Assembly (NCBI GenBank): GCA_964544495.1
Contig: CAZJBY010000005.1
Span: 11,081 to 75,080 of the forward strand
Direction: 5' to 3'
Origin: an uncultured Candidatus Bathyarchaeia archaeon
GTDB lineage: Archaea; Thermoproteota; Bathyarchaeia; Bathyarchaeales; Bathycorpusculaceae
DNA: 64,000 nt
Shown one piece after another: positions 11,648 to 49,891 of this stretch. Numbering within the stretch: the first letter of the stretch is position 1; every line of letters begins with the position of its first letter. A program made the position numbers and the translations under genes. Under the pieces are notes generated by a model that worked only from the letters and a program-made list of their open reading frames with translations, searched no databases and was not told the DNA's origin.

Positions 11648-12181
11648 TATACGGAGAGGTTTTAGGTCTACCGCGAAATTGGCTGTTGAAGAACCATTTA
11701 TCATGAACCTTGCTCCTGTGTAAGGCTTTGTGTTAAGAACGTATTCGCCGTAATAGACCGCGGTGACCGTGAGAGAGAATGGACCCTGAGGTATCTCTTT
11801 CAGCTCAAACGTGCCAGAGAATTCTTCCCACACGAGCCCGTGAGGTAGGTCTTGGAAAACGTACACTTCGTCTTGCAGCCAGCTTGCCGAATAATAAACC
11901 TCGATAAGATTGCTAAGAACAATGTCCGGACCGTGTATTGGTGTGACAGTGTAGGTTATCTTGATTGGTGGCGAGGCATATTTGGTGCCATTCTGCAGGT
12001 TCAATATGGAGACCCTGGGCGGAGTGGTTGTTGATTCCGGAGCCACCCACCCCGAGTCTATCCACGGATTGGCTTTTGCAACGTTTACAAGCAGAGCCCC
12101 TGCCAAAGCCAAGATCAACAACACCGCTAGTAGTGTTGCTGTGATTTTTTTTATGTTGCCTGTGTTATTGGAGCTGAACAT
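11291..12181 (-). CDS. surface-protein family paralog (signal peptide, Ig-like domains, C-terminal TM plus basic tail)
   Basis: The ORF is open to 12199 (GTG). ATG 12181 gives MFSSNNTGNIKKITATLL..., which aligns with the paralog at 45176. YSLDAQDN..LSGLTAGSHNVTVYGWD motif. Ends ...IVYFTKRKKKKTTQ. Confidence 0.8.
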   Translation of the reverse strand: MFSSNNTGNIKKITATLLAVLLILALAGALLVNVAKANPWIDSGWVAPESTTTPPRVSILNLQNGTKYASPPIKITYTVTPIHGPDIVLSNLIEVYYSASWLQDEVYVFQDLPHGLVWEEFSGTFELKEIPQGPFSLTVTAVYYGEYVLNTKPYTGARFMINGSSTANFAVDLKPLRIGILAPYPQAYSTSDVALTLTTNEKTSQLQYSLDAQDNITINGNATLSGLTAGSHNVTVYGWDQFGNPGNSETTTFTITEPEQLPTSQLIAASAVASATAICLALIVYFTKRKKKKTTQ

Positions 12182-12245: not shown

Positions 12246-12286
12246 TGTCAAGGTTTCTTGACCTGGCTTAGTCAACATTTCTTGAC
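12246..12286 (-). promoter_or_regulatory. dual-palindrome operator, copy 1
   Basis: TGTCAAGGTTTCTTGACCTGGCTTAGTCAACATTTCTTGAC, 64 nt upstream of ATG 12181. Confidence 0.7.
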
Positions 12287-28730: not shown

Positions 28731-29219
28731 TTGACTGGAAAAGCTGACGAACGCAAGTGCTTCGCTGTGGTGAAAGTTCGAGGAACAATCAGCGCTCAGC
28801 GTGAAGCCAGAGAAACCCTAGAGATGCTTCGTTTAGCCAAGACTAACAATGCAGTGCTCATTGACGACCGCCCTTCGTACATAGGCATGCTGTACCGCGT
28901 GCAGAACTACGTCACATGGGGAGAAGCGTCAAAAGAGATCGTGGCGTTGATGCTGCAGAAACGCGGAAGGCTTGCCGGCGGCAAGAAGTTAACAGATGAA
29001 GCGTTGGAGACGCTGGGTTACAAGTCGATAGACGCGCTCGCCGAAGCCATCGCAAGCTGCAAAGTGGAGTTCCAGAAGCTTCCGAACGTGCAGCCAGTGT
29101 TCAAGCTGCATCCCCCAAAGAAAGGCTTCAAAGGAAAAACCAAGAAAAGCTTTGCCGCAGGCGGCGAAGCAGGCTACCGCGGCGAAAAAATCAGCGAACT
29201 CATAAAACGCATGGCATAG
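28731..29219 (+). CDS. rpl30: 50S ribosomal protein uL30
   Basis: AVVKVRGTISAQREARETLEMLRL, plus operon position. TTG start. Confidence 0.85.
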   Translation: MTGKADERKCFAVVKVRGTISAQREARETLEMLRLAKTNNAVLIDDRPSYIGMLYRVQNYVTWGEASKEIVALMLQKRGRLAGGKKLTDEALETLGYKSIDALAEAIASCKVEFQKLPNVQPVFKLHPPKKGFKGKTKKSFAAGGEAGYRGEKISELIKRMA

Positions 29220-29371
29220 TTTCAAAGATTTAAGTGTGAAAGTCAGCTTGCCAAAACAGGATTAGATTTTAATCTTTTTCTCTGCTGTTCTGTTATCTTG
29301 TCTTTTATGTCCTTGCTCTCCGCTTACGTATGTACGTAGTAAAACTAAGGGTGAAAAAAAGCACGTTCAGA

Positions 29372-31327
29372 TTAACGCCTGCGTTTCTTGAAGTAGAATA
29401 GTATACCCGTAGTGACAGCAACTGCCGAAACTGCAACGGCGACCACGATGAAAGTTATTGGGAAAGGCTCTGACTCTGCTACTGTGAACGTGATTGTTTC
29501 GGAGGCTTCTACGTTGCCTGCCCCGTCCCAAGCGTACACTGTCAAAGTATGCTCGCCACTAGTCAGCCCAATCAGCGTTGTGTTCCCAGCCACTGTTACG
29601 TTGTCTTGTCCGTCTAAGCTGTACGCGACTTTCGAAAGAGTCTCGTTCACGTTGAAAACTAGTGACACATCAGGCGCGTCGTACGCTTTGGATTCTGGAG
29701 ACAAAATCAGAACACGCAGCGCCGTTTCTTCTGTGGGTTCTCCTGCTTCGTCGTCTATGTTTTCTGGGGTTTCTTCACGTGGCGGGGGAGTGCTTAGAGT
29801 GATGGCATCTGAGTACGTGATGGATTCTACACCTGCGTTGTCCCTGAATTGAACATAAACGGTTTTGGAGCCGTCGCCTGATGTAAGCGTCCAAACCTTA
29901 GTATCTGCGTAATCTTCCCAACCTGTCCAATTTATGCCGTCGTTGCTGAAGTGCATCTGAGCTACACCAGAAACGTCCTCTGCTGAGAGAGTTAAAACCA
30001 CTGAGCGTTGTCTGGTTGAGGCTGCGCCGCCATTAACCGTTATTGAACCTGTTGGAGGAGTTGTGTCAACGATGAAGTGTCTTGCGTGTGAAGCTTCTAT
30101 GTTGCCTAAGGTGTCGTTCGCATAAATAACCACGTAATGCCATCCGTCAGGCAAGTCGGGTAAAGTTGTGTTACCCGTGATTGTTGCATTTGGCTGCCCA
30201 TTTAAGCTGTAGCCAATCCAGCTGTCAAATCCATCAACCGTGAACGTTAAGGGAATCCTGGCGCTTACGTTGTATATCTTGTTTTGTTCTGGAGAAACAA
30301 CATTAACAGCAGGCGGCACGGGAACGTACCCAAAAGGCGTGTACCGTTCATTTGCGTCAGATAGACGCAACACGTTTTTGTCTTCTCCTCCTATCGCGTA
30401 TAAAAGGTCATCCACAACTGCAACACTCAAAAAGTGTCTTGGTGTAGGCATTTCTGCACCAACGCTCCATGTTTCCGTTTCAGTGTCAAAGACCTGAGTT
30501 AGCGGTCCACGTTTTATGAGCCCAGTTTCGGGGTCCACTTCATCGGAGTAAACGTTCCCTCCTATGAGGTAGATTTTTTTCGCCGCATAAACACCTGTTG
30601 TTGCCACTCCCGCCTCATAGGATACATGGTAAGACATGGAAGGCCCATAGCGCCACGTGTCTGTTTGGGGGTCGTAAATCTGGGTCTCATTGTTACCACT
30701 GCCTGTGTTTCCGAAAACGTAAATTTTGTTGTCTACAACAGCTGATATACAGTAAGCAACAGCAGTTGGGAGCGGGGCCATCGTGGTCCACGAATCATTA
30801 ACGGGATCATACATTTCATTTACATTTGAACGAAACGGGGTTCCAAGGAAAAAGGTGTCGAATCCACCTATGAGGTAGATTTTGCCGTTAACTGTGCATG
30901 CTGTTGCAGTGGTTCTCGGTGTAGGGCTTGGAGTTTTTGTTGCCCAAGAATCGGTCGCGGTGTTATAAACTTGGTTTAATTCCCATCCGAAACAATAAAT
31001 TTTGTTTTGGTAAACAGCTGCACCAGAACCACCGTCTACCGTGGCGCCATTAGGTTGTGGTATGGGGGTTTTGGTTGTCCAAGTGTTAGTTATGGGATCA
31101 TACATTTCGTTAACATCGGTGGCTCCTGACATTACTTGTCCTCCGATAGCGTATGTTCTTCCTCCAACTACGCCGATGCCGATTCCAGTTCTGGCCGTGG
31201 GCATAGAAGCCATAATTGCCCAAGAATTCTCTGCTTGATCTGCTAAGGCTGGCTTCACTGAAAGCGTGCCAGCCATGGCCGAAGTCAGCAACACCAACAC
31301 GATGACTGTAGCCAGCACCCTTTTCAT
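29372..31327 (-). CDS. Kelch-repeat surface protein of the paralog family
   Basis: Signal peptide, at least 5 Kelch-like blades (YAIGG, IYCFGW, IYLIGG, IYVFGN, LYAIGG), three Ig-like modules (YSLNGQPN..., YSLDGQDN...GEHTLTVYAWD), and EPFP-TM-FYFKKRRR. Confidence 0.8.
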   Translation of the reverse strand: MKRVLATVIVLVLLTSAMAGTLSVKPALADQAENSWAIMASMPTARTGIGIGVVGGRTYAIGGQVMSGATDVNEMYDPITNTWTTKTPIPQPNGATVDGGSGAAVYQNKIYCFGWELNQVYNTATDSWATKTPSPTPRTTATACTVNGKIYLIGGFDTFFLGTPFRSNVNEMYDPVNDSWTTMAPLPTAVAYCISAVVDNKIYVFGNTGSGNNETQIYDPQTDTWRYGPSMSYHVSYEAGVATTGVYAAKKIYLIGGNVYSDEVDPETGLIKRGPLTQVFDTETETWSVGAEMPTPRHFLSVAVVDDLLYAIGGEDKNVLRLSDANERYTPFGYVPVPPAVNVVSPEQNKIYNVSARIPLTFTVDGFDSWIGYSLNGQPNATITGNTTLPDLPDGWHYVVIYANDTLGNIEASHARHFIVDTTPPTGSITVNGGAASTRQRSVVLTLSAEDVSGVAQMHFSNDGINWTGWEDYADTKVWTLTSGDGSKTVYVQFRDNAGVESITYSDAITLSTPPPREETPENIDDEAGEPTEETALRVLILSPESKAYDAPDVSLVFNVNETLSKVAYSLDGQDNVTVAGNTTLIGLTSGEHTLTVYAWDGAGNVEASETITFTVAESEPFPITFIVVAVAVSAVAVTTGILFYFKKRRR

Positions 31328-32490
31328 GTGTCACTCCTTTTCCCTTTGCGCTTTAAGAAGTAGGTTACCAACCCGAGGGTGACCAAAGCGGCTGAAGCGA
31401 TTATGGCTGTGGAGATCCATTTTGGGAAAGGTGCTAAAGCTTGCTGAACAGGCGGAGTGGTCGTTTTCTGCGTGGGCGATTCGCTTGGTGAGGGAGTAGA
31501 AGACGAGGGTGATGGTGCCTTTGGTTCAGCGGGAGGCGTACTTATTGAAGGTAAAGACTTTTCGTTTGGAGCTAAAGTTACCTCCTGCAGTGCATCTCCA
31601 ACATCAAAAATTATCGTTTCTGATGCGCTGATGATTCCAGTTTCATACCAAACGTAAACCGTCACATTGTGGTGTCCAAAGGCTAATCCTGTAAGCAGTT
31701 CGCTCCCTGTAAAAACCTCTCTGGTGAACAGGTCTCTGCCAAGGACCTCTTCAATGTGGACAGCATTTATTGGAACAGTAACGTTTTCCTTCCCGTCCAG
31801 ACTGTAGGTGGCGTTTGAAACTGGGTAATCCATCGAAAACTCTAATTCCACATCAGTTACATTGTAACTTCGGTTTCTAGGAGAAACAACGTTGATTTCA
31901 GAGCCGTCGGTGACCATGAAGGTTATAGTACAAAGAGCCTGATAGAGAGTGTGTGCGTAAGCTATGTTTTCTTCGAGTGAGGGACCACAATAAATAGTTA
32001 GGTAATGCTGTCCTGCAGACAAAGCAGGCAAGATTGCTGTGCCTCTGATAAAATATATCGCGTATGTGCCGCCTTTCAGATAATTTGAAGGCACGGGCAC
32101 ATCCTCCTTTCTCAGGAGCGTTAAGTTAACTTCTCGCATGTCACTTCTCGGTTCAGTGATGATACTGCCGACCCGACCATCTGGCGCATAGGCTTGTTCT
32201 TCTCTCCACCCATCGCCAAACTTCAGGGTTGCCCGGTCGCTGATTGTAAGTTCGTCCAAAGTGAAGCAGTAACTTCCCCCATCAGGGGGAGGTCCATACG
32301 TGTTTTGCACTATAAACGACAAATAAACTGGGTTTTTTGTTGTTTCTTGTGGGAACTCCACTGAAATTGTAATGCAGCCTGGTGCCGCATAACCTGTGTC
32401 TCCCGCTACAAAAGGCTTTACCGAAAGTTCTCCAGCCAACGCTGAAAAAATCAACACCGCAAGCGCAGCTAAAGCGCAGGCTCTTCTCAT
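31324..32490 (-). CDS. surface-protein family paralog with an S/T/P-rich stalk
   Basis: Signal peptide, YSLDGKENVTV...GHHNVTVYVW, P/S/T linker, APFP-TM-YFLKRKGKR. ATGA overlap with the next gene. Confidence 0.75.
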   Translation of the reverse strand: MRRACALAALAVLIFSALAGELSVKPFVAGDTGYAAPGCITISVEFPQETTKNPVYLSFIVQNTYGPPPDGGSYCFTLDELTISDRATLKFGDGWREEQAYAPDGRVGSIITEPRSDMREVNLTLLRKEDVPVPSNYLKGGTYAIYFIRGTAILPALSAGQHYLTIYCGPSLEENIAYAHTLYQALCTITFMVTDGSEINVVSPRNRSYNVTDVELEFSMDYPVSNATYSLDGKENVTVPINAVHIEEVLGRDLFTREVFTGSELLTGLAFGHHNVTVYVWYETGIISASETIIFDVGDALQEVTLAPNEKSLPSISTPPAEPKAPSPSSSTPSPSESPTQKTTTPPVQQALAPFPKWISTAIIASAALVTLGLVTYFLKRKGKRSDT

Positions 32491-33278
32491 GTTTTATTCT
32501 TCCTCCTCTTGACTCTGGCAAAATAAGCTACAAACCCGAGAGTGACTATGGCAACTGAAGCGACTACGACTGTGGCGGAAAATACTGGGGAAGTTTCTGC
32601 TTGAGGTTCTGTTGGCTGGGTCGCCTGTTGCGTTTCTACTTTGAACGTGATTGGTTTGGATGTTCCTGTGGAGCCTGTGGTGTCTTCCGCGTGGACTGTT
32701 ATGGTGTGTGTTCCGTCTGGGATGCCGTAGAGGGTGGTGTTTCTGGTGATGGTGACGGGTGCTTGGTCGTCTAGGCTGTAGCTTAGCCAGTTGGTGGGTT
32801 CGGAGACGGAGAAGTTTAACTGGATCTTGGTTGTGTGGTAGGTTTCTGCTGGTTTGGGCTCCAGAACTGAGACGCGTGGCGCGGCGGCATTAACGGTGAA
32901 AACCACCTCGTTAGAGATACCCGAGGTCTCTACGATGCCCCATAGGGGGCCTAAATTGTAAGTAAGGTGAACACCTATGCGCAACCTATGAGTGCCTTCG
33001 GATAACTGTGTTGGCCAAGACTGCAATCTTCTGTCGTCCAGGATGTAAGTGCAATACTGGTTAGACAGCCATTTTGAGTAATCTGGCTCCGTCTCTACTG
33101 TGAAAGCCACGGGAACCTTGCTGCTACTGTACATTTTGCTTTCTGGAAGCTGAATTGTGACCGATGCTGGAGGTAGGTATGGCGTTGCATTCGCTGCTGC
33201 AAAATTAACGAGTAAGGCTCCAGCTAATGCTAAAAACAGTAGCGTTAACACAAAAACAACGGCGTAGACTCTTTTCAT
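32487..33278 (-). CDS. surface-protein family paralog
   Basis: Signal peptide LALAGALLVN, YSLDDQAPVTI...GTHTITVHAED, TM-AYFARVKRRKNKT. ATGA overlaps on both sides. Confidence 0.75.
   Translation of the reverse strand: MKRVYAVVFVLTLLFLALAGALLVNFAAANATPYLPPASVTIQLPESKMYSSSKVPVAFTVETEPDYSKWLSNQYCTYILDDRRLQSWPTQLSEGTHRLRIGVHLTYNLGPLWGIVETSGISNEVVFTVNAAAPRVSVLEPKPAETYHTTKIQLNFSVSEPTNWLSYSLDDQAPVTITRNTTLYGIPDGTHTITVHAEDTTGSTGTSKPITFKVETQQATQPTEPQAETSPVFSATVVVASVAIVTLGFVAYFARVKRRKNKT
32607..32912. repeat. 306-bp perfect direct repeat, partner of 59764-60069
   Basis: Identical sequence in both paralogs. It covers the C-terminal Ig-like domain only. Confidence 0.9.
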
Positions 33279-34081
33279 GATGCGCTCCTCTTTTTATTGC
33301 GCCGAACAAAGTACGCTACCAGCCCAAAAGAAATTACTACAGTTGAAATGACTATGGCAATAGCAATCAAGGTTGTTGCTAAAGGGGTGGGGATGTTCAC
33401 GTCAAAGGTCGCCTTCTCGGATGCGCCTGTGTTTCCAGCCTCATCACTGGCGTACAAGACAAGCGTGTGCCTGCCACTCGACAAGCTAGCCAAAGTAGCG
33501 TTGCTAGTTATTGACACGTTCTTCATGTCATCAAGACAGTAGACCATTTGAGAAGCAGGCTCACTCAACGTAAACGTCAACGTCACGTCAGATGCGATGT
33601 ACAATGATGGCTCAGGGGACAAAATCTTGACTCTCGGTCGAATAGCGTCAATTGTGAAGGTTACAGCACTGGAATACCCCTCGTAACTGGGGATTTTCCA
33701 TTCACCGATTTCTTGCCAAGTTGTCACTCGGATAGTCAGATTGTGGACGCCATTGGACAATCCTGATAACGTTGTACTGTACGCTGAGCCGTTGAATTCT
33801 AGAGAGAAAGCCACAACTTCCTTTTTATCCAACACGTAGCTGTATTCTGGCGACTGCAACTCAATGGAGCTGCCAGTTGATGACGTGTACATGAAGGCTA
33901 CTGAAACGGTTTGAGGGTATGTCCTGTTATTTTGTGGTGACACCACGTTGACATTCAACTGGAAGTCGTCTCCCATTGCCAAATCAGTAAAAAAATTTCC
34001 AGCTAATGCTGAAATCAGAAAAGCAGAGAGTAGAGTTACCATCAGGATTTTACTTTTACCGCGTAAACTCTTGCCAAGCAT
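33275..34081 (-). CDS. surface-protein family paralog (first gene of the four-gene operon)
   Basis: ATG at 34081 (TTG at 34084). Signal peptide, VYCLDDMKNVSI...GRHTLVLYASDEAGN, TM-AYFVRRNKKRSAS. Confidence 0.75.
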   Translation of the reverse strand: MLGKSLRGKSKILMVTLLSAFLISALAGNFFTDLAMGDDFQLNVNVVSPQNNRTYPQTVSVAFMYTSSTGSSIELQSPEYSYVLDKKEVVAFSLEFNGSAYSTTLSGLSNGVHNLTIRVTTWQEIGEWKIPSYEGYSSAVTFTIDAIRPRVKILSPEPSLYIASDVTLTFTLSEPASQMVYCLDDMKNVSITSNATLASLSSGRHTLVLYASDEAGNTGASEKATFDVNIPTPLATTLIAIAIVISTVVISFGLVAYFVRRNKKRSAS

Positions 34082-34148
34082 CAATCGTAATGCCCCTTTG
34101 TTTATTCTCCGTGGTAATTCTAGGTTTTCTGTGTGTTATAGCCTTTTT

Positions 34149-34189
34149 TGTCAAGGTTTCTTGACCCAGCTTAGTCAACATTTCTTGAC
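34149..34189 (-). promoter_or_regulatory. dual-palindrome operator, copy 2
   Basis: TGTCAAGGTTTCTTGACCCAGCTTAGTCAACATTTCTTGAC, 67 nt upstream of ATG 34081. CTATAACACACAG lies between the two. Confidence 0.7.
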
Positions 34190-34195
34190 TAAACC

Positions 34196-34333
34196 AAAAA
34201 CCATCATATCTGCCGTCTACTAAGAGCCTATTAGCCAATTAATGCAGAAACTATAGAGGGGTAGGTCCCTATTGGCGTGGAAACAGCCCAATACATGCAA
34301 AAAACAGTGCTTCGCAGAAACCATGCAGTTTAG
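34196..34333 (-). ncRNA. conserved non-coding module (candidate sRNA or leader), full copy
   Basis: Bracketed by a TATA box (34334-34342) and a T5 run (34196-34200, - strand). About 75% identical by eye to 60619-60744. Confidence 0.35.
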
Positions 34334-34378
34334 TTTATATAAGGGGGGTATAGACAAAAAAACGCAACAGTTCTAGCG
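34334..34378 (-). repeat. G6-TATAGAC cassette, copy 4 (subtype A with T7 run)
   Basis: The + strand reads TTTATATAAGGGGGGTATAGACAAAAAAACGCAACAGTTCTAGCG, in the divergent region between the surface operon and hsp20-rpl15-secY. Confidence 0.8.
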
Positions 34379-34466
34379 CAATCAAACCAACAGAAAAAAT
34401 CTTGGCGGCTTTGCGATACATTTTAAAGTTACGTTGGAAATGCCATTGTATCTAGGAGACGCAAAG

Positions 34467-34904
34467 ATGAGTGCGAAATGGAGGAGATGCAAAAAGCGCC
34501 TGAAGTGGCTAGACACGGCTAGTCCAGAAAGGATCGACGCCAACAACCGCTGCAGGATACTCCGCATCGAAACCACGCGAACCGCAAGGTCAGCTCCTCC
34601 ATACTACAGATCATCAAAAAACTACGCGAAACGAAAATGGAAAGCGCCAAAACCACTCATCGACATTTTCCAAGAAAAAAACTGGATAACCATCGTCGCC
34701 GAAATCGCAGGCTTTAATAGGGAAACCCTAAAGATAAATGTGAAAGACCAGAAACTAACACTATCTGCAAAAGCAAAAGACCGCAGATACTACAAAAGCT
34801 TAAATCTACCCAAAGTAGTGGTTCCAAACGCCGTCCACACCACCTACAAAAACGGCGTCCTCGAAATCAAACTTAAAAAAGCACCAAAAGAAAAAGGAAT
34901 CTAA
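34467..34904 (+). CDS. Hsp20/alpha-crystallin-domain protein with a basic N-terminal region
   Basis: DIFQEKNWITIVAEIAGFNRETLKINVKDQKLTLSAKA...TYKNGVLEIKLKK. The ORF is open from 34434. ATG 34467 follows GGAGA. The stop lies 6 nt before rpl15. Confidence 0.7.
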   Translation: MSAKWRRCKKRLKWLDTASPERIDANNRCRILRIETTRTARSAPPYYRSSKNYAKRKWKAPKPLIDIFQEKNWITIVAEIAGFNRETLKINVKDQKLTLSAKAKDRRYYKSLNLPKVVVPNAVHTTYKNGVLEIKLKKAPKEKGI

Positions 34905-34910
34905 AAGAAC

Positions 34911-35333
34911 ATGCCACACAAACTAAGAAAAACCAGAAAAATGCGCGGCAGCCGAACACACGGCTACGGCAGAATAGGCCAACACAGAGACGCAGGTTCA
35001 AAAGGACATCGAAAAGTCGGACGCCACAAGCATTTGTGGAGCTACGTTGTGACACATGAACCCGACTACTTCGGCAAAAAAGGCTTCACGTCACCCCAAA
35101 GCCTAAAACGCAAAGAAAACACCATCAACCTCAAACAACTCAACAACTTAGCCGTTGAAAAGGACACCGCAAACGTAAACCTGACAAGCCTAGGCTACAC
35201 CAAACTCCTCGGCACAGGCAAAATCGCAAAACCCCTGACCATAACCGTACCTTCATGCTCCAAATCCGCAGCAGAAAAAATAAAAAAAGCTGGCGGAAAA
35301 ATCCTAACCCAGTCCAAGGAAAACGGAGAGTAG
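34911..35333 (+). CDS. rpl15: 50S ribosomal protein uL15
   Basis: KLRKTRKMRGSRTHGYGRIGQHR...KLLGTGKI. Confidence 0.9.
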   Translation: MPHKLRKTRKMRGSRTHGYGRIGQHRDAGSKGHRKVGRHKHLWSYVVTHEPDYFGKKGFTSPQSLKRKENTINLKQLNNLAVEKDTANVNLTSLGYTKLLGTGKIAKPLTITVPSCSKSAAEKIKKAGGKILTQSKENGE

Positions 35334-41084: not shown

Positions 41085-41474
41085 ATGAAATTCCAAAGCA
41101 GTCGCTTAGTTACAGGACTCTTCTTGGAAGCAATAACGCTATGCCTGATAGCCTCCTTCCGTTTCATCAACATCGCCGCCACAGCCACACTCTCAATCTT
41201 TAACCTGCTCTTTCTCTCCCTCACCATTCACTTGAACGGAACCCTCAACAAAAAACTGGGCATCCTAGCCTTAGGCAACATTATAGGTCTATTTTGGAAC
41301 TTCGTTCTCCAATACTTCGCCGTCGCTGGAGTCGCTTTCTTTGGGGAATCATTTAACGCTTTCTACGCAGTTTCTTATCCTTTTCTAAATTTCACGTGGG
41401 TCGTGTCCTTCTGGTCCATGAGCCTAGCGTTTCTTCCTAAGCCCAAAAGCACTCAAGCAGAGGTGAAACCTTGA
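41085..41474 (+). CDS. small polytopic membrane protein (4-nt overlap with the downstream synthase)
   Basis: 129 aa, about 4 TM helices. Overlaps the GT2 start. Confidence 0.55.
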   Translation: MKFQSSRLVTGLFLEAITLCLIASFRFINIAATATLSIFNLLFLSLTIHLNGTLNKKLGILALGNIIGLFWNFVLQYFAVAGVAFFGESFNAFYAVSYPFLNFTWVVSFWSMSLAFLPKPKSTQAEVKP

Positions 41475-42751
41475 TTACCGAAGTGATGCAAGCCATATTC
41501 CTGTTTTCAACTGTGCTGATGGCAGCTTACCTCGTCAGACACTACATTTTCACATTAACCGTTCTGAGAAGAACCAAAAAAACCAGAAGCAACCCTGCTT
41601 TAGACGCGAAGTACAAACCCGAAGTCTCCATCCTGATCCCAGCACGCGATGAGGAGCACGTAATTGGACGACTGCTACAGCGGATGACTCAGCTCACCTA
41701 TCCACACGATAAACTCCAAGTCATAACCATTGACGACGCTTCATCTGACATAACAGGACAGATCGCCGAAGAATTTTCAAAGCGCTATTCATTCATCGAA
41801 ATGCTGCACCGCGATAAAAACACCGGCGGCAAAGGCAAAGCCTCAGCCATGAACGCTGGATTAAAACGTTCAACAGGCGAAGTCGTGCTTTGCTTCGATG
41901 CGCACTACTACCCGCAGAGAGACATTGTCGAGAAACTTGTAAAGGAATTTATTGACCCCACGGTTGGCGCGGTGCAGGGACGCCCTGTGGTCTTGAACGA
42001 AGCGCAAAACATCGTAACGCGATTAGTAACACTGGAGAGAATCGGCGGCTACCGAGTTGACCAAGAAGCGCGTGATAACCTAGGCCTTATACCTCAGTTC
42101 GGCGGCACAGTCGGCGGCTTCAGGCGAAGCATCTTGGAAGAACTGGGCGGTTTTGACGAGTCAGCGTTGACTGAAGATACGGACCTGACGTTTCAAATTT
42201 ACCTCGCCGGCTTCAAGGTTCGCTACGTAGGCGACGCTGAATGCTATGAAGAAGCCGTGGACAACTGGAAAGCGTACTGGCGGCAGAGGCACAGGTGGGC
42301 GAGAGGACACATGCAAGTATGCTTAAAGCACGCGCCGCGCGTCTTACGAAGCAAAAAACTGAATGCGAAAAAGAAAATTGACGGTCTGCTTCTTCTGCAC
42401 GTGTATTTCGTACCTGTTCTAACTCTGCTCGCGTTGTTTGCGGGCGTTTTCCTTGTTATCTCTCAGGCTTCACAATTTGCTAACATCCTTTGGCTTTTTG
42501 TGCCCGTGTCCTTTTACAGTGTCGTAGGCAACTTTGCGCCGTTTTTTGAAATCGGTATTGGTGCCTATTTGGATGGTAGAACAAGACTCCAGTGGCTGGT
42601 TCCTCTTTTGCTTTTCGCGTATCTGTATAACATCCTAATCTGGACAAAGGCTTTTTTGGATCTTTTTGCTGCGAAAGTGTTTAGGAAAAGTCAGGGTGAT
42701 TGGGCGAAGACTCGTCATCTGGGCAATGGAAAATGTTATGTTGAGAATTAA
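41471..42751 (+). CDS. membrane-embedded processive family 2 glycosyltransferase (polysaccharide synthase-like)
   Basis: N-terminal TM, SILIPARDEE, DDASSD, CFDAHYY, QRHRWARG (QxxRW), C-terminal TM bundle. Confidence 0.75.
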   Translation: MITEVMQAIFLFSTVLMAAYLVRHYIFTLTVLRRTKKTRSNPALDAKYKPEVSILIPARDEEHVIGRLLQRMTQLTYPHDKLQVITIDDASSDITGQIAEEFSKRYSFIEMLHRDKNTGGKGKASAMNAGLKRSTGEVVLCFDAHYYPQRDIVEKLVKEFIDPTVGAVQGRPVVLNEAQNIVTRLVTLERIGGYRVDQEARDNLGLIPQFGGTVGGFRRSILEELGGFDESALTEDTDLTFQIYLAGFKVRYVGDAECYEEAVDNWKAYWRQRHRWARGHMQVCLKHAPRVLRSKKLNAKKKIDGLLLLHVYFVPVLTLLALFAGVFLVISQASQFANILWLFVPVSFYSVVGNFAPFFEIGIGAYLDGRTRLQWLVPLLLFAYLYNILIWTKAFLDLFAAKVFRKSQGDWAKTRHLGNGKCYVEN

Positions 42752-43047: not shown

Positions 43048-44079
43048 CTATATGAAAAGCTTGGCGTTTTTCCACTGATCTTTAGCCAGCGCCAGATTTC
43101 CGTAAGGGCTTCCGTAAAGCGAATAAAAAATGTAGCACAGATAGGCGCACTGTGTACATTCATTGTAAGTTTGGCGTAGCAACTCGAATTTTTTGCTGTT
43201 CCATATTTTGGGTAAATCAAACACTGAACCTGCGAAATTATGACTATGGCAACCCGCGATTCTGCCCAGATGGTCTATGACGAGAAAGTTCTGAAGCGCA
43301 CGGCAGTTCCACGTTCTTTTGCCCTCTTGAAAATATGTTCTAAGCACCTTCAACAACTTGGTCGTCATTAGAATTCTCCTGTTCTTCTTTTTCATCTCGA
43401 GTAGAGTATCGCAAAGCTTAACCATAGCCTGCCTGTCCTTTATGATGAACTCGTCATTTGCTTTTCCGATTCTAAAAAGCTGGTTTACGTCGCTAGTTTG
43501 GTCGTAAGAATAGAGGCAGTACCAAACTGGGATTCCTTTCTGAGTGAAGTAGTTTGTGATGTCCACGATTTCGTAAAGGTTCAGCTGCGAGATTGTGGGT
43601 GTTACGCTTACGTTTATTCCTTCGTTGTGCAGTGTTTCCACGGCTTCCATGGCTTTTCTCCAGGCGCCTGGAACAGCTTTTATGTAATCATTTTTGGCTT
43701 CGTCTAAGCTGTCTATTGAAATTGCCACAAAATCCACGTTTCGCAAAGCCTCAAGGTTTTTCTTGGCCATGCTGCCGTTGTCGTACACGGTGGTTATGAA
43801 AAGATTTGAAGCGTACTCGATTATTTCGGGAGCATCCTTTCTTAAAAGCGGGTCTCCCCCAGAGATCACAAGCTCTACAATGCCCAGGTCCTTCAAAATG
43901 TCCAGTCCCCGCTTTATCTCTTCGGTGGATAATTCTCTCTGGTCTTGTTCTTTCCAGACGTTGCAGCCCCTGCAGCGGTAATTGCATTTCCTCGTGATCA
44001 TCCACTGGGCATGATGGGGTCTGTTAGGCGTTAGCGCGCTTATGGCTATTCTGGAGGCTTTTCGCAATTTTATAGTCAA
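43048..44079 (-). CDS. radical SAM protein with a SPASM/twitch-like C-terminal Cys cluster
   Basis: CNYRCRGC (CxxxCxxC), GGDPLL. C-terminal C-x19-C ... CTQCAYLC. Confidence 0.7.
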   Translation of the reverse strand: MTIKLRKASRIAISALTPNRPHHAQWMITRKCNYRCRGCNVWKEQDQRELSTEEIKRGLDILKDLGIVELVISGGDPLLRKDAPEIIEYASNLFITTVYDNGSMAKKNLEALRNVDFVAISIDSLDEAKNDYIKAVPGAWRKAMEAVETLHNEGINVSVTPTISQLNLYEIVDITNYFTQKGIPVWYCLYSYDQTSDVNQLFRIGKANDEFIIKDRQAMVKLCDTLLEMKKKNRRILMTTKLLKVLRTYFQEGKRTWNCRALQNFLVIDHLGRIAGCHSHNFAGSVFDLPKIWNSKKFELLRQTYNECTQCAYLCYIFYSLYGSPYGNLALAKDQWKNAKLFI

Positions 44080-44286
44080 ATGTTAAGCACCATGTACGTC
44101 GATTGCGGCTGTTTTAATAGACTTAGCCCACACTTATATAAGTCATGAGGCAAAAAAGGGCGAAACTTTCGGGAATTGCTAAAAATGCAGATTTTTGTTG
44201 CCTGAAGAATTAGCTGATGTCTTGTAGTTTTATATAATGTGTTATTAAGAATCTTAATTAAGAAAATGGGTGGTTCAATAGTGAAT

Positions 44287-45027
44287 ATGCGCGTGGACGT
44301 TGTCTTAATTACAAAAAACAGTGAACGCCTGCTCAACGAATGCCTCAAGTCTGTGTATGAAAACGTTCCAGTCAACCGCCTAATAGTTGTCGATGGGTAT
44401 TCAACCGACAGGACATTGGAAATAGTGCGTCAGTTTCAGAAGAAACATGGAAACGTTTTGGTGATACAAGACAAAGGGACTCGTGCCACTGCGAGACAAA
44501 AAGGCATAAACCAGGTGAAAACCGAATGGTTCATGTTCGTTGATAGTGACGCGGTTCTTTGTAAGGACTGGTTCAAGAGAGCCGAGACACACTTGGGTGA
44601 GAACGTGGGCGCTGTCTGGGGAATCGAAGTTTGGTCTACAATAAAAAACCCTGTGGTTCTTAAACTGTTTTTGTTGGTAACGCGTAAAATCTTTGACCTT
44701 CGCGGTGGAACTCATGACACTCTTATCCGCACAGAACTTGTTAAAGACATAGAAATCCCGAAGGTCCTCCATGTTTTTGAGGACGCTTATATCAAGGATT
44801 GGATAATGCGAAAAGGGTACAAGCTGATTGCATGCTACAATCCATACTGCGTTCATCACAGGCCTGACAGCGTCTGGACTATTAGGGGTAGCTTAAACAT
44901 AATAGCCGATGCGATAAGGGCGGGCAGACTAACCTTGCTCATTAAATTGGCACTTGCCTACGGCTTCTACACGGCGTACTCGCTGTATCGATTTATCGGG
45001 GCTAATATAAGACGCGGAGGGACTTAG
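44287..45027 (+). CDS. family 2 glycosyltransferase, paralog of 49115-49891
   Basis: MRVDVVLITKNSERLLNECLKSVYENVPVNRLIVVDGYSTDRT...FVDSD. The ORF is open from 44239. Confidence 0.75.
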   Translation: MRVDVVLITKNSERLLNECLKSVYENVPVNRLIVVDGYSTDRTLEIVRQFQKKHGNVLVIQDKGTRATARQKGINQVKTEWFMFVDSDAVLCKDWFKRAETHLGENVGAVWGIEVWSTIKNPVVLKLFLLVTRKIFDLRGGTHDTLIRTELVKDIEIPKVLHVFEDAYIKDWIMRKGYKLIACYNPYCVHHRPDSVWTIRGSLNIIADAIRAGRLTLLIKLALAYGFYTAYSLYRFIGANIRRGGT

Positions 45028-45069: not shown

Positions 45070-45110
45070 GTCAAGAAACCTTGACTAAGCCAGGTCAAGA
45101 AACCTTGACA
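45070..45110 (+). promoter_or_regulatory. dual-palindrome operator, copy 3
   Basis: GTCAAGAAACCTTGACTAAGCCAGGTCAAGAAACCTTGACA, the reverse complement of the other copies, 65 nt upstream of ATG 45176. Confidence 0.7.
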
Positions 45111-45234
45111 AAAACTCTTAAATCGAACGCGAGTCTTTAATTTTATAAGAGGAATGAGCACAGAGGCAACATAAGATGTTCCTCTCCCAAAAGCCAGACA
45201 ACACAAAAAAACCTTCACAGCAACACTAGTCACA

Positions 45235-46071
45235 GTGCTGTTGACCTTGGTCTTAGCGTGGAGTCTGCTTGTAAACATAACAGAAGCCGACCCTATTTTA
45301 GACATGGGAGAAGTGCCTCCGAAATCGACAGCGGTCCCGCCAACAGTACTCATCCTGGACCCTCAAAACAACACTACAACCAGCACATCCAACATCTGGC
45401 TCGCTCTCAAAATTACCCCTGCGCGAGACCCTATCGCCAGGAGGCGGTGTAATCTTGTTGAAGTTTATTATTCGGCAAGCTGGCAACCGAACAAAGTGAC
45501 TGTTTTCAACGATGACGCTGGCGGATATGTGGTAGACGTTTGGCAAAATGAAATTGAACTGAAAAAGATACCGCAAGGCGTAAACTCCGTGACAGTTACA
45601 GCGGTTTATTATGGAGAATATTATCCTTACAAGTATCCCTACGCAGAAGCCTATTTCACGATAAGCGGTTCTTCAACCGTTACTTTTGCCGTAGACCTCA
45701 CCCCGCTCCACATCGGAATCCTGGCGCCGTACCCACAAGCGTACTCCACGTCGGACGTGGCGCTGACGCTCACAACAAACGAGAAAACCTCACAGCTGCA
45801 ATACAGCCTGGACGCGCAAGACAACATCACCATCAACGGAAACGCGACGCTCAGTGGGTTGACAGCGGGAAGCCACAACGTGACCGTTTACGGCTGGGAC
45901 CAGTTCGGAAACCCAGGCAACTCAGAAACCACAACCTTCACCATAACCGAGCCAGAGCAGCTCCCGACAAGCCAACTGATCGCCGCCTCCGCCGTGGCAT
46001 CAGCCACAGCCATATGCCTCGCACTCATAGTGTACTTCACAAAACGCAAGAAAAAGAAGACCACACAATAA
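45235..46071 (+). CDS. surface-protein family paralog, with the N-terminus out of frame with its ATG (A7 tract)
   Basis: The ORF from GTG 45235 aligns with 11291-12181. The homologous ATG 45176 is in the +2 frame and would join if the A7 run (45205-45211) were A8. Confidence 0.7.
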   Translation: MLLTLVLAWSLLVNITEADPILDMGEVPPKSTAVPPTVLILDPQNNTTTSTSNIWLALKITPARDPIARRRCNLVEVYYSASWQPNKVTVFNDDAGGYVVDVWQNEIELKKIPQGVNSVTVTAVYYGEYYPYKYPYAEAYFTISGSSTVTFAVDLTPLHIGILAPYPQAYSTSDVALTLTTNEKTSQLQYSLDAQDNITINGNATLSGLTAGSHNVTVYGWDQFGNPGNSETTTFTITEPEQLPTSQLIAASAVASATAICLALIVYFTKRKKKKTTQ

Positions 46072-46122: not shown

Positions 46123-47430
46123 TTAGTAGTAGTCTGTGTAGTACCACGCTATTATCGTTTCGTCATCAGTTATCGACAGGGTCACCGGATTGTCATAATA
46201 GGTGGGCCCGTAGAAAACTTCGTAATAGCAGAAGACGTGGATATACGGATAATCATAGAGAGGCGTGTCCACTTCTATCTTGTGGTTTCCGTCCGACACC
46301 GTAATGGAGTAGCCGTCTGTGAGCCCCATGTACTCGTCGTCAACATAATACGGCACTGCGCCTTGCTGGTACTGATCATAGGCGAGCACCGTCAAAGAGT
46401 GCTGCTTGTCCCTGAAAACCGCTCGCAACGTGTAATCCTCGTCCATGTAAACCCCTATGGTTGGGTTCGTGCCGGCGGGGTCGCCGTCCAAGAGCCAGTG
46501 GTCAAAGATGTGGTCGCCGTCTGCTGTGGCGGTGACGTACGCGGTTTCTGTAGGCGCGTAATAATAGGTGCCTGAAGCGTTGGTGGTGCCTCCTGCTCCA
46601 GCTGAAACAGACAGGCTTAGCTCATCATAATAGTAAGCCATAACATCTGTCTCCCAGTTTGAACTACAGTACACGGTTATGGGGTTTTCATACAGCGGAT
46701 AATCATCGAAATGCCTGAAACCGGAGCCGCTGGTGGTCCATAAATCTACTTCAACGGTGTGGTTACCAGGCGCTACATCCTTGACTACGTACATGTAGCC
46801 TGTGTTGCCTGCGTACGCGCCGTCTATCCAAACGTCTGCGTCGGCAATATCCCAAGTTCCAGTCCATTCCGCTGCTAAAACCTTCAAGGAGCAAATTGTC
46901 AAACGGAGGTTACCGTTACCGTAGACACGCATATGACCAGAATACCAGCCTTTACCCATTCCCGGACCAAAATTGACAGGCCACCACGTTTCATATCCAG
47001 TGTAAAGTGGGCTTTCGTCATAGCTCTTTGAAAAAACATCTGATGAAGCCAAGTTTAAGGCTTCGCGTATGGTGTAGCCTTCGTTCAGTGTGTAATTATA
47101 GAATTGTATGATGAAGTCCATACCAAGCCCTGTGTAGTTCTTGAAGTTCCCTCCAGTTGTATTGCCTAAGGTTGGGGAGGCACCAGAGAAGCCTATATAG
47201 CAATGACTGCCATAAGCGTCAGGGTCTGCATAGCCGTCATCGCTCATGCCTGCAGTGTCAGTCCAAGCTGAAGGCATCCCAGTGGTGTACGGCCAGTTTT
47301 GTGCGCTCTTACATGTCCATATCCACGCAAAGAAAGTCTCGCCATCCGTCCGCGATGCAATATCAGGATAATCGACATAGTCCCCATTTATGCCTCCGTT
47401 ATTGCCCTGATAACAATTACTGCCATTCAT
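46123..47430 (-). CDS. C-terminal part of a split secreted protein: putative Cys-peptidase-like region plus beta-rich repeat domains
   Basis: No signal peptide. FFAWIWTCKSAQ and MRVYGNGNLRL resemble the caspase/gingipain-fold layout. DHWLLDGDPAG...YTLRAVF is an InlB-B-repeat-like module. Homology continues upstream of the ATG in the same frame (DYVTVFHFGH). Confidence 0.5.
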   Translation of the reverse strand: MNGSNCYQGNNGGINGDYVDYPDIASRTDGETFFAWIWTCKSAQNWPYTTGMPSAWTDTAGMSDDGYADPDAYGSHCYIGFSGASPTLGNTTGGNFKNYTGLGMDFIIQFYNYTLNEGYTIREALNLASSDVFSKSYDESPLYTGYETWWPVNFGPGMGKGWYSGHMRVYGNGNLRLTICSLKVLAAEWTGTWDIADADVWIDGAYAGNTGYMYVVKDVAPGNHTVEVDLWTTSGSGFRHFDDYPLYENPITVYCSSNWETDVMAYYYDELSLSVSAGAGGTTNASGTYYYAPTETAYVTATADGDHIFDHWLLDGDPAGTNPTIGVYMDEDYTLRAVFRDKQHSLTVLAYDQYQQGAVPYYVDDEYMGLTDGYSITVSDGNHKIEVDTPLYDYPYIHVFCYYEVFYGPTYYDNPVTLSITDDETIIAWYYTDYY

Positions 47431-47461
47431 GTGTCCGAAGTGAAATACAGTAACGTAATCT

Positions 47462-48871
47462 TTAGTTGCTTCGTCGCTTCCAGTATTGGTTCAGTATCGT
47501 ATTCCTAGTTGTTTGGCTGCCATAATGGTTTGCAGTGTTGTAACCTGCGTTGTTGAAGAAGTCTTCAAGGGTATCGCAGACTATCAAGGATGCATTGTTT
47601 TCATTGTCAATCTGACCGTACGTCGAGGCGTAAATTCTGGATTTTTCTAAATGAGTAAAAGGAATAGCTTTGGCGTTTGGAACCAATGTTATAGCTGTGC
47701 TTAGAGCTAGTATGCAAAAGAGTATTGTGCAAAATTTCAGAAGCCGTTTCGATGCGGCTCTGAAACTTAGATATTTTCGTTTGTGACTGAAGCAGATGAA
47801 TGCTAAGGTGACTGCAAATATTACGCCGACCAGAAACGTTAGAATCAAGGCCTGCTCTTGAACCTGAACAGCAGGTTCAGACACAGGAAGCGACGCTTCA
47901 TCGCCAACCACCATATATCCGATTCCGCTCACTCCTCCAGTGTCCGCCCACACCCTCACCGTCACGCCGCTCACGCCGCCAGCATAAACCTTGTCAAAGC
48001 CCAACGGAACGTACCACGAAGGATAAAGCACGAAGGGGTCGCCCCCGCGAGCAGAACTCGAATCACGATAGTTAAGGTAGCAGAGAGAAGCGTTGCCAAC
48101 CTCCACGATTTTGAAGTCTGAAACCGTCACCGTGCCGTTCTCAGTGTTCTCAACAGTCCAAGAATAGTCCTCAGCCGTCCCTAAGGCGATGGCCACGGCA
48201 TGCCCGCTTGAAAGCACTGGTTCAGCAGCTATCGTGTAGAGATCCCAGTTGTCCAAGAACGTCTCCAACATGCCTTCACGGTAGTTGAAAACCACGTTCT
48301 TCGACACCGCTAGAACACCGTTCTCATCCACGTACGTCCACGTAAAATCCACTAACGACTGGTTTAAATTCGAGATTTCAAGCTTTACGTTGCCCTCGGT
48401 TTTGGTAACGTTCTTGTCCGCATCGACCGCGTCCAGCATCGAATTCAGGTTTCCATAGAGCGAAGCGCCAGTGTAGCTTTGGTAGTTCTGCATGAAGTCT
48501 TTAGCCATCGACACGGCGTCCGTAGAAGGCTGTTTTAGCGAGACCAAACCGGAGTAGTCGCTTATGAAGATTCGGTGCAGCTTGCCGTGGATGAACGAGC
48601 AGGCTGCTCTGAGGCTGCCTTGGCCGGACGTGAGCCTGAAATCCGCCTCCTCCCGCGTCGCGCTTAGAAACTGGCTGGTCGCCTCAGCCTGCAGAAACGG
48701 CGCGTAGGCTGTCATGTTGAAGCCTGCCACTTCCTCGAGAATCGACAGGGACTTTTCCTGGGTGGTCATCTCAGCCGCGTGCGCGTTAGGCGCCTGAGAC
48801 GCGTATGCGCTTAAACTCAATAAGGTTGTCAGGAAAATCGTGGTCAACAGCAATCGTTTAGAATTTTTCAT
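47462..48871 (-). CDS. N-terminal part of a split secreted protein: signal peptide, PepSY-like ectodomain, TM hairpin, start of a peptidase-like domain
   Basis: Signal peptide ...SAYASQA. VRVWADTGGVSG is a PepSY-like ending. Two TM helices flank a basic loop. The ORF stops 31 nt before the next ORF. Confidence 0.5.
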   Translation of the reverse strand: MKNSKRLLLTTIFLTTLLSLSAYASQAPNAHAAEMTTQEKSLSILEEVAGFNMTAYAPFLQAEATSQFLSATREEADFRLTSGQGSLRAACSFIHGKLHRIFISDYSGLVSLKQPSTDAVSMAKDFMQNYQSYTGASLYGNLNSMLDAVDADKNVTKTEGNVKLEISNLNQSLVDFTWTYVDENGVLAVSKNVVFNYREGMLETFLDNWDLYTIAAEPVLSSGHAVAIALGTAEDYSWTVENTENGTVTVSDFKIVEVGNASLCYLNYRDSSSARGGDPFVLYPSWYVPLGFDKVYAGGVSGVTVRVWADTGGVSGIGYMVVGDEASLPVSEPAVQVQEQALILTFLVGVIFAVTLAFICFSHKRKYLSFRAASKRLLKFCTILFCILALSTAITLVPNAKAIPFTHLEKSRIYASTYGQIDNENNASLIVCDTLEDFFNNAGYNTANHYGSQTTRNTILNQYWKRRSN

Positions 48872-49114: not shown

Positions 49115-49891
49115 ATGCAGCCGATAGATGTCGTAGTTCTTACAAAGAACAGTGAACACTTACTTGACAGGTGCTTAGCCTCAGTCTACGAAAACGTGCC
49201 CGTTAAAAACCTGATAATAGTTGACGGCTTTTCAACCGACCGCACCCTGAAAATCATAAACGACGTCAGTGAAGCACACGGCAACGTGGAAATCCTGAAG
49301 GTCAACGGTTCAAGAGCTAAAGCACGAGAGAAAGGCATACGACATGTGAGCACGGACTGGTTCATGTTCGTGGACAGCGATGTGGTGCTCAGCCGAGACT
49401 GGCTTAGAAAAGCCGAAAAAAACGTGAAGAGCGATGTTGGCGCGGTCTGGGGAGTAAACATCGACCTCATCCCTAACGTGAGAGACAAGCGGGTTCTAAA
49501 GTTGCAGAGCATAATTGCTCGGCAATGCTTTGGTCTCCGAGGCGGAATGCACGACACGCTTATCCGCCGCGAGGCTGTGGCGGGAATAAGAATCCCTGAA
49601 GAGCTGCATGCGTATGAAGACGCGTACATAATCAACTGGATCAAAGCGAAAGGCTACAAGACGGTAATCGGTGACGAAGTTTACTGCCTACATTTCAAGC
49701 CGCCGGCGAATTGGAGCTTGCAGAACGGGGTTTCGCAGGCTATTGTCGAATTCAAATGCGGAATTGTTTACTCTCACCTGTATGAGTATATGTTCTTTTA
49801 CCCAGTTTTCATGTTTCAATGGTTCATCCAGCTGTCCCTTCACGGCACCAAAGCATTATTCTCGCCTCAGCGCGGTCCAAAGATGATCTGA
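49115..49891 (+). CDS. family 2 glycosyltransferase, paralog of 44287-45027
   Basis: MQPIDVVVLTKNSEHLLDRCLASVYENVPVKNLIIVDGFSTDRT...FVDSD. Confidence 0.75.
   Translation: MQPIDVVVLTKNSEHLLDRCLASVYENVPVKNLIIVDGFSTDRTLKIINDVSEAHGNVEILKVNGSRAKAREKGIRHVSTDWFMFVDSDVVLSRDWLRKAEKNVKSDVGAVWGVNIDLIPNVRDKRVLKLQSIIARQCFGLRGGMHDTLIRREAVAGIRIPEELHAYEDAYIINWIKAKGYKTVIGDEVYCLHFKPPANWSLQNGVSQAIVEFKCGIVYSHLYEYMFFYPVFMFQWFIQLSLHGTKALFSPQRGPKMI

Follow-up and report, generated by a model that had tools for sequence, protein, structure and literature searches.

How are the members of a large exported protein family held at the surface of an archaeal cell, when they all end in what looks like a sorting signal that matches no curated model? 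This question is raised by a 64,000-nucleotide stretch of contig CAZJBY010000005.1 from an uncultured Candidatus Bathyarchaeia archaeon (hereafter the window, meaning the whole stretch analysed). Nine paralogous genes in four transcription units encode proteins that share a short C-terminal domain, which we call the cassette. We propose, with a probability of about one half, that the cassette is an orphan sorting or anchoring domain with a dedicated recognition role, used in a Bathyarchaeia-specific regulon of cell-surface glycoproteins.

The family was delimited with a hidden Markov model (HMM) of the C-terminal 42 residues. Searched against the six-frame translation of the window, it matched exactly nine open reading frames (ORFs), at E-values from 1e-14 to 7e-22, and nothing else. 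These are the nine members that the initial annotation had listed, at the same coordinates:

11291-12181, minus strand: family member, single-gene unit; 296 residues from the ATG at 12181, the ORF extending to a GTG at 12199; signal peptide, two beta-sandwich domains, cassette.
33275-34081, minus strand: first gene of a four-gene operon; 268 residues from the ATG at 34081; signal peptide, two immunoglobulin (Ig)-like domains, cassette.
32487-33278, minus strand: second gene of the four-gene operon; 263 residues; ATGA overlap with both neighbours.
31324-32490, minus strand: third gene of the four-gene operon; 388 residues; Ser/Thr/Pro-rich stalk ahead of the cassette.
29372-31327, minus strand: fourth gene of the four-gene operon; 651 residues; signal peptide, Kelch beta-propeller, three Ig-like modules, cassette.
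45176-46071, plus strand: frame-broken family copy; the remaining ORF, 45235-46071, has 278 residues and a GTG start inside the signal-peptide h-region.
59644-60474, minus strand: first gene of a three-gene operon; 276 residues from the ATG at 60474, the ORF extending to 60504.
58964-59647, minus strand: second gene of the three-gene operon; 227 residues; divergent ectodomain without the YSLD motif, typical cassette.
58056-58967, minus strand: third gene of the three-gene operon; 303 residues; structure modelled.

Pairwise identity among the nine proteins was mostly 23-47%, with two close pairs at 71-72%. Their common layout is a signal peptide, one to four Big_13-like beta-sandwich domains, often a disordered stalk of Ser, Thr, Pro and Gln, and the cassette of about 35 residues. 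The Sec-type signal peptide with ...ALAG.LLVN..A(N/D)P that had been described was present in eight of the nine copies, the exception being the frame-broken 45235, and these N-termini end in A-x-A followed by (N/D)P. A class III (pilin-type) signal peptide was ruled out, as no consistent [KR][GA] site lies ahead of the hydrophobic stretch and a conserved AxA, then NP, follows it; a lipobox was ruled out for want of a Cys. We infer that the proteins are exported via Sec and cut by signal peptidase I. The YSLD-type beta-rich module was recovered by an HMM of the YSLD(G) Ig module in eight of the nine ORFs; 58964-59647 has diverged. The density of N-x-S/T sequons noted before was borne out by counting: the nine proteins hold 43 in 2967 residues (1.45 per 100), as compared with 0.33 per 100 in 29 other proteins of the window, a 4.4-fold difference. 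Shuffling the residues gave an expectation of 25.7 +/- 4.6, and none of 2000 shuffles reached the observed 43. N-x-T sequons, of the form GN(T/A)TL, are conserved in the beta-sandwich domains. The family proteins are probably N-glycosylated, and they may act in the S-layer or as adhesins.

The copy at 45235 had been counted as an ordinary member. It does carry the cassette, but compared with its paralog at 11291 it has a 2-nt insertion (CC) directly after an A7 run, at about 45,211. The frame from the ATG at 45176 is broken by the insertion and hits a TAG, and the internal GTG start alone remains. Judged from its sequence, 45235-46071 appears to be a remnant, and the broken frame may reflect decay to a pseudogene, a mistake in the assembly or phase variation by slippage.

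The cassettes of the nine proteins are encoded at the following positions:

11294-11404, minus strand: QLPTSQLIAASAVASATAICLALIVYFTKRKKKKTTQ, of 11291-12181.
45958-46068, plus strand: of the 45235 copy, identical to that of 11291-12181.
33278-33391, minus strand: PTPLATTLIAIAIVISTVVISFGLVAYFVRRNKKRSAS, of 33275-34081.
32490-32594, minus strand: TSPVFSATVVVASVAIVTLGFVAYFARVKRRKNKT, of 32487-33278.
31327-31431, minus strand: PFPKWISTAIIASAALVTLGLVTYFLKRKGKRSDT, of 31324-32490.
29375-29467, minus strand: PFPITFIVVAVAVSAVAVTTGILFYFKKRRR, of 29372-31327; of the window copies the nearest to the class-wide consensus.
59647-59751, minus strand: PFPATLIASSVVASVAAISFGLVAYFQNRKKRRTK, of 59644-60474.
58967-59071, minus strand: HFPTLLIDTTIVASVSVVSFGLVAYFLRRKRRSPA, of 58964-59647.
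58059-58166, minus strand: LFPTSTVAVAVITSTALVFFGLAAYFVRARKKRSLT, of 58056-58967.

Each cassette is built from a signature, (P)FP(T), a run of some 20 hydrophobic residues rich in small side chains, the motif GL(V/L)xYF and a Lys/Arg tail. The initial annotation had described this C-terminus as an FP motif, a transmembrane (TM) segment and a basic tail; the tripartite form was found in all nine proteins, but FP itself in only five, the others having LP (two), SP (one) and TPL (one). The main subtype of the window reads PFPT...SFGLVAYF(L)RRKKR, and the class-wide consensus EPEPFPTTLVA-x12-GLLVYFKKRK(R/H). In 73% of 291 proteins, 22-23 residues separate FP from YF, and the tail, which is Lys-rich (375 K versus 213 R), ends five residues past YF in 33%. 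In the outer half of the helix A, S, G and T are frequent, and small residues form a stripe along the helix (A-15, S-11, A-9, G-4). Information content was calculated from 86 homologs picked by ectodomain similarity, which makes the set less circular. F-P-T reached 2.7-3.3 bits and G-L-L-x-Y-F-K-K-R-K 1.9-3.0 bits, equal to or above the last Ig strand.

We then looked for the cassette beyond the window, a scan that had been proposed earlier as a check on the conservation of the motif. A word-indexed homolog search with a 48-residue cassette profile returned 12 short fragments; the motif thus exists elsewhere. An exhaustive profile search of 1.84 billion representatives of 50% identity clusters yielded 544 protein clusters at E<=1e-3, 30 of them at E<=1e-10, with a C-terminal match in nearly every case. 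In a scan of one genome per GTDB species, 240 stretches were confirmed. The results on related loci given here refer to the best 79 of these 240 and to their 1.07 Mb of neighbourhoods; the scan was seeded with a 7-sequence consensus alignment, which biases the loci towards the GLLVYFKK subtype. All 79 loci belong to Bathyarchaeia. Many loci and paralogs occur per metagenome-assembled genome (MAG): several MAGs contribute 6-9 separate loci each, and a single locus holds up to 10 cassette ORFs. The motif is therefore kept far beyond the copies of the window.

The related loci contain 142 cassette ORFs, and 137 of these end within 12 residues of the match. By a simple heuristic, an N-terminal hydrophobic region is present in 125 of the 130 that are at least 200 residues long. 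Among 116 carriers of at least 150 residues, the same Ig module lies directly before the cassette in 95 (82%); in the other 21 the cassette follows Kelch propellers, NosD-like beta-helices, 'WLVKTD'-repeat or other domains, joined directly or via a proline-rich linker. Because it is also found behind Kelch, beta-helix and other ectodomains that have no Ig module, the cassette appears to be portable. A few distant homologs (P0055, P0096, P0098 and P0101) end in other TM segments and basic tails.

For tripartite C-terminal sorting signals, eight in-silico criteria have been set out (Haft 2023), and we compared the cassette with each. It agrees with 1, 2, 4, 5 and 6, and in part with 3, 7 and 8. 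All nine window copies qualify under criterion 1, the match being C-terminal in the related ORFs as counted above, and criterion 2 agrees with the presence of nine copies within 64 kb and of numerous loci in single MAGs. The central hydrophobic TM segment of criterion 4 corresponds to the 22-23 residues between FP and YF and to a modelled helix at 276-301 of the 58056 protein, and the terminal basic cluster of criterion 5 to KKRK(R/H) of the consensus. As to a signal peptide in most carriers (criterion 6), eight of nine window copies have one, and the heuristic finds an N-terminal hydrophobic region in 125 of 130 related ORFs. For criterion 3, a nearly invariant signature, F-P-T is the most informative stretch, but at 76%, 80% and 66% it falls short of near-invariance. 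For criterion 7, carrier pairs unrelated outside the signal, 21 of 116 carriers have no Ig module and 82% share it. For criterion 8, homologs without the signal or with another, the few distant homologs with other tails are the examples.

Against curated models of such C-terminal domains, the cassette stayed below threshold for every CTERM family. The initial annotation had likened its layout to that of PGF-CTERM with a different motif, and this comparison stands: the layout is present, and PGF-CTERM gave no match at E<=1 with full proteins or at E<=10 with C-terminal peptides. PEF-CTERM (TIGR03024) reached at best 10.4 bits (E 0.59, cutoff 23), PEP-CTERM at most 13.6 bits (cutoff 16) and Heimdall-CTERM (NF045529) 11 bits (cutoff 24). 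Loki-CTERM (NF033507) scored at best 15.3 bits over model positions 4-26 of 27, with most copies at 10-13 bits and the cutoff at 19.9. The LPXTG anchor model (TIGR01167, cutoff 15.9) gave 17.2 and 16.7 bits for two consensus-type peptides that come from database homologs and not from the window; it was rejected, as there is no LPXTG motif and the alignment is confined to model positions 10-34, the TM segment and tail. GlyGly-CTERM with rhombosortase was likewise discarded, for the GlyGly motif is absent and the rhomboid protease found near some family genes scores 26.9 bits where the TIGR03902 cutoff is 84. Since the criteria agree in full or in part and no curated model matched, the cassette is to be treated as an orphan candidate and not as a member of a named family.

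The genes that carry the cassette are also organised and, it appears, regulated in a common way. All five junctions within the operons of the window overlap by ATGA, as had been noted. Runs of two to four family paralogs with -4 nt overlaps recur in other Bathyarchaeia, for example in L016 (four genes) and in L010 (two units of three genes), so that ATGA-coupled paralog operons are a rule of the family, and they suggest stoichiometric co-production. The diversification suggested at the outset is seen in sharp breakpoints of identity. In 11291 and 45235, the last ~118 codons are identical in DNA except for one synonymous change, and identity of the N-terminal domains is 33-60%; 32487 and 59644 share, at 98% identity, a 300-nt tract (32585-32884 in the former) that is confined to the second Ig domain. 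Such breakpoints mark gene conversion of the membrane-proximal module, with divergence of the distal domain.

A shared operator had also been claimed, and the claim was upheld. The sequence GTCAAGAAANNTTGAC occurs eight times in the window, two copies upstream of each of the four units and none elsewhere, where 0.03 are expected. It is a palindrome, GTCAAG-N4-CTTGAC, paired at 24 nt from start to start, and a few bases downstream of each pair come an A-rich stretch and a TATA-like CTTAAA or CTATAA. The four pairs are:

12247-12286, minus strand: double operator directly upstream of TATA-like CTTAAAC, for the 11291 unit.
34150-34189, minus strand: double operator upstream of the four-gene operon.
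45070-45109, plus strand: double operator upstream of the 45235 copy, between a GT2 glycosyltransferase gene and the family gene.
60542-60581, minus strand: double operator upstream of the three-gene operon.

Across the 1.07 Mb of related loci, GTCAAG-N4-CTTGAC was found 81 times, against ~0.06 copies expected from sequence length, and 61 of the 81 precede a cassette ORF by 200 nt or less. Among the other copies, those with an assigned ORF lead to six surface-protein genes that encode a signal peptide and to two divergent neighbours of family genes; many further copies adjoin family genes whose starts are mis-set. On this distribution, the palindrome appears to be a class-wide cis-element for surface-protein genes and is a predicted operator. 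Rfam gave no match in the conserved intergenic blocks. A separate promoter-like motif, YTTTATATAAGGGGGGTATAGAC, occurs four times in the window (34334-34355 and 60746-60767 on the plus strand, 5001-5022 on the plus strand, 10535-10556 on the minus strand), also with no Rfam match, and was detected by blastn in L011, L027, L030, L037, L044, L059, L068, L073 and L079. Two of the window copies share the next ~25 nt (ACAAAAAAWCGCAACAGTTCTARGCG), and two lie about 150-180 nt beyond family operators.

The ectodomains were examined by profile search and by structure prediction. The Kelch propeller ascribed to one member was confirmed in 29372-31327 by Kelch_1 (PF01344; E 2.8e-40, 135.8 bits over 4 stretches), above the cutoff of that model. 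The Ig module gave weak to marginal matches to Big_13, OmpL47-type and Ig_J models in Pfam and NCBIfam; against Big_13 (PF19077, cutoff 27 bits) the 29372 and 59644 proteins scored above the cutoff (35.7 and 28.8) and the other copies below it, at 15-25. The AlphaFold2 model of the 58056-58967 protein, built on 50 aligned sequences (the query and 49 homologs), had a mean predicted local distance difference test score of 85.8. It places a signal helix at residues 2-23, beta-sandwiches at 33-157 and 164-253, a disordered stalk at 254-275 and the TM helix at 276-301, in line with the architecture first proposed. With Foldseek, the model matched tandem Ig/Fn3 adhesins and cell-adhesion molecules in the PDB (CbhA Fn3, SiiE, Bap, RbmA, JAM and CD147), the best matches having E-values of 2e-8 to 1e-6 and the identity to solved structures being 9-16%. 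As modelled, the beta-sandwich fold is generic and would indicate no specific function.

We investigated whether a processing partner is encoded near the family genes, using Pfam scans of 86 and then 27 multi-TM ORFs and an NCBIfam scan of the 10 best candidates. Results of the 86-ORF scan are given without 41 singleton families; most of the relevant ORFs were covered again by the re-scans. The multi-TM proteins of the window are VTT/DedA, TraX, a PEMT/ICMT-like methyltransferase, HtpX (M48), SecY, Amt and a GT2, with no exosortase-like protein among them. The sortase-like partner whose co-occurrence had been set as a check did not appear: in agreement with the earlier statement that the window shows no archaeosortase, no match to an archaeosortase or exosortase was obtained among multi-TM ORFs of the window and the 1.07 Mb of related loci, and a rhomboid was found near family genes in one syntenic block. 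An 8-TM ORF just downstream of a family operon (L010, 10628-11494) was dropped, having no family match and no homolog in any other locus.

In 6 of 79 loci, the distance of the rhomboid gene to family genes is 1.5-9.5 kb. At these six (L021, L030, L047, L049, L061 and L083), family gene(s), HtpX (M48 protease), a RibK-like gene, the rhomboid protease and RibL form one block. The window shares HtpX (62180-63148) and the RibK-like gene (from 63373) of this block and ends inside the latter, whose product is 91% identical to the copy in Zodletone MAG JAFGNM01 (locus L030). Since the window ends within the shared block, a rhomboid gene probably lies just beyond it. The most frequent neighbour overall, in 8 of 79 loci (e.g. 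L032 9629-10198), encodes an Lrp/AsnC-like helix-turn-helix protein with a Cys-rich C-terminal extension, 3-7 kb away. It is not adjacent to family genes and has no homolog in the window, and it is a weak candidate for the operator-binding factor. A PadR-family regulator (7644-8015, minus strand) lies 3.3 kb from the 11291 locus.

What, then, does the cassette do? Several results weigh against a sorting or anchoring domain with its own recognition partner. The signature is conserved without being close to invariant (P 54%, F 76%, P 80%, T 66%), and five of the nine window copies alone have its F. Conservation is as strong at the cytoplasmic end of the helix and in the tail as in the signature, which would fit a retained anchor too. 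No processing enzyme was found among the multi-TM ORFs searched, and no neighbour recurs beyond 8 of 79 loci; sorting enzymes, however, need not be linked to their substrates, so that the negative result on neighbourhoods neither supports nor refutes processing. With the Ig module shared by 82% of the longer carriers, much of the spread of the cassette could be descent of an Ig-plus-TM unit, aided by gene conversion. In a rival account, the products are plain type I membrane proteins with a retained stop-transfer helix and no sorting step, and conservation comes from Ig-plus-TM descent, gene conversion and TM-TM packing of co-expressed paralogs. S-layer proteins of other Thermoproteota commonly keep a C-terminal TM anchor, and the small-residue stripe, the conserved cytoplasmic boundary, the sharp conversion tracts between dispersed paralogs, the Ig module directly upstream in 95 of 116 longer carriers and the want of a sortase-like gene in the window and related loci all fit such an anchor. 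We regard it as a possible explanation, although not the most probable one. Carriers that lack the Ig module have the cassette fused straight to a Kelch, beta-helix or other domain. Conservation across 544 clusters and an outer-boundary signature held at a fixed 22-23 residues exceed what hydrophobic anchoring needs, and gene conversion within a genome cannot account for conservation between species.

Two explanations name an enzyme class. If an intramembrane protease (rhomboid, CPBP/Rce1-like or presenilin-like) cleaved the anchor, the ectodomain would be shed or re-anchored. Such enzymes have precedents in rhombosortase and myxosortase, Ala, Ser and Gly abound in the outer half of the helix, and the rhomboid lies near family genes in 6 of 79 loci with the same block in the window; but the six loci are one syntenic block, that is, one observation, the rhomboid falls far short of the rhombosortase cutoff, and the cassette has neither a GlyGly motif nor an invariant Cys. 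We consider this unlikely. Still less can be said for substrates of an archaeosortase, an exosortase-family transpeptidase that would cut near FPT and attach a lipid as in the PGF-CTERM/ArtA system, an account we hold to be very improbable. The tripartite layout and the Ser/Thr/Pro-rich stalks ahead of the motif resemble PGF-CTERM substrates, and there are weak sub-threshold matches to PEP-CTERM and PEF-CTERM. Yet PGF-CTERM itself gave no match, PEF-CTERM (10.4 versus 23 bits) and PEP-CTERM (<=13.6 versus 16) stayed under their cutoffs, no Exosortase_EpsH or archaeosortase model matched a tested multi-TM ORF of the window or the 1.07 Mb, and archaeosortases have been described from halophiles and methanogens.

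We favour an orphan tripartite domain read by a dedicated partner. The proteins would be exported by Sec, cleaved by signal peptidase I, N-glycosylated and held at the membrane by the cassette. Its partner could act in processing, by removing the helix, or could be a docking factor in the membrane or cytoplasm. Coupled translation of paralogs would supply subunits for hetero-oligomeric surface assemblies, and one transcription factor acting on the palindrome could switch the whole gene set on and off. A bolder form of this proposal, which we think doubtful, is a Bathyarchaeia-specific sorting system whose enzyme is unrelated to archaeosortases or is a specialised intramembrane protease, with the paralogs as hetero-oligomeric blocks of the S-layer or sheath of Bathyarchaeum and a single palindrome-binding factor switching them all. 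In the cultivated Bathyarchaeum representative an S-layer and an outer sheath have been seen, and no proteins have been assigned to either.

The gene content of the window is archaeal, with CdvA (8431-9636), hydrogenase-maturation genes, an spc-type ribosomal-protein cluster and an ammonium transporter, and its nearest genomes are Candidatus Bathyarchaeia MAGs. Copies identical to the Kelch-bearing protein 29372-31327 were found in the metagenome of Joint Genome Institute (JGI) sample 3300031364 and in the assembly of Logan run SRR9700626. The four-gene operon sits inside the ribosomal-protein cluster (28731-35333), on the opposite strand, with the L30 gene (28731-29219) on one side and an Hsp20 gene (34434-34904) on the other, followed by apparent L15 and SecY genes; the junction of L30 and the operon is also present in JGI contig L001. 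GT2 glycosyltransferase genes had been reported beside two family loci, and they are there, as an association only:

9779-10495, plus strand: GT2 glycosyltransferase, convergent with 11291-12181.
44239-45027, plus strand: GT2 glycosyltransferase, adjoining the 45235 locus.

With 41471-42751 and 49115-49891 there are four GT2 genes in the 64 kb, and together with the sequon-rich proteins they suggest a glycan-rich envelope. A radical-SAM/SPASM gene (43048-44079, minus strand) stands beside a family gene and GT2 genes, an arrangement also present in an unrelated metagenome contig (L004 11320-12738; L005 2735-4093), and it may be a recurring link to glycan or peptide modification. At 46123-48871 on the minus strand lie two adjoining sequon-rich ORFs (1.33 per 100 residues), both without the cassette. 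The first of these features, a signal peptide, occurs in one ORF together with an internal TM segment, whereas the second ORF has no signal peptide and carries an InlB B-repeat-like domain; the pair may derive from a single surface-protein gene that was disrupted.

In anoxic sediments, Bathyarchaeia rank with the most abundant archaea. A class-wide cassette offers a sequence handle by which the exported surface proteome of any Bathyarchaeia MAG can be listed, and phylogenetic profiling with it permits a search for the partner. Through the palindrome, a regulon open to testing is defined and its transcription factor can be baited, and the coupled paralog operons predict hetero-oligomeric surface assemblies. 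If no processing takes place, what remains is a clearly bounded family of anchored glycoproteins with Ig folds, of an ordinary kind.

Lineage-specific tripartite C-terminal domains are a kind already known; this cassette and its regulon are absent from the curated libraries and from the literature searched, which yielded nothing on archaeosortases or C-terminal signals in Bathyarchaeia. The closest-scoring curated models, by resemblance only, are Loki-CTERM and Heimdall-CTERM, which are likewise short domains at the extreme C-terminus of many exported proteins of one archaeal lineage, built from a signature, a TM helix and a basic tail. The cassette differs from them in its FPT signature, its Lys-rich tail, the conserved G-L-L-x-Y-F at the inner boundary and its occurrence in Bathyarchaeia. 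PGF-CTERM with archaeosortase A and PEF-CTERM with archaeosortase C share the tripartite layout, exported surface (glyco)protein substrates and often a Thr/Ser/Pro stalk, and are set apart by the missing PGF-CTERM match, a PEF-CTERM score far under its cutoff and the lack of a nearby archaeosortase. In the fold of their ectodomains, the family proteins resemble tandem Big_13, OmpL47-type and Fn3-like adhesins such as SiiE, Bap, RbmA and the Fn3 domains of CbhA. Unlike the giant repetitive adhesins of the SiiE/Bap type, they are small (227-388 residues), two-domain, membrane-tethered proteins encoded in coupled paralog operons. S-layer proteins of other Thermoproteota such as SlaB are also exported glycoproteins with one C-terminal helix and partner subunits in the same operon, whereas in Bathyarchaeia many paralogs per genome share a portable, sequence-conserved cassette.

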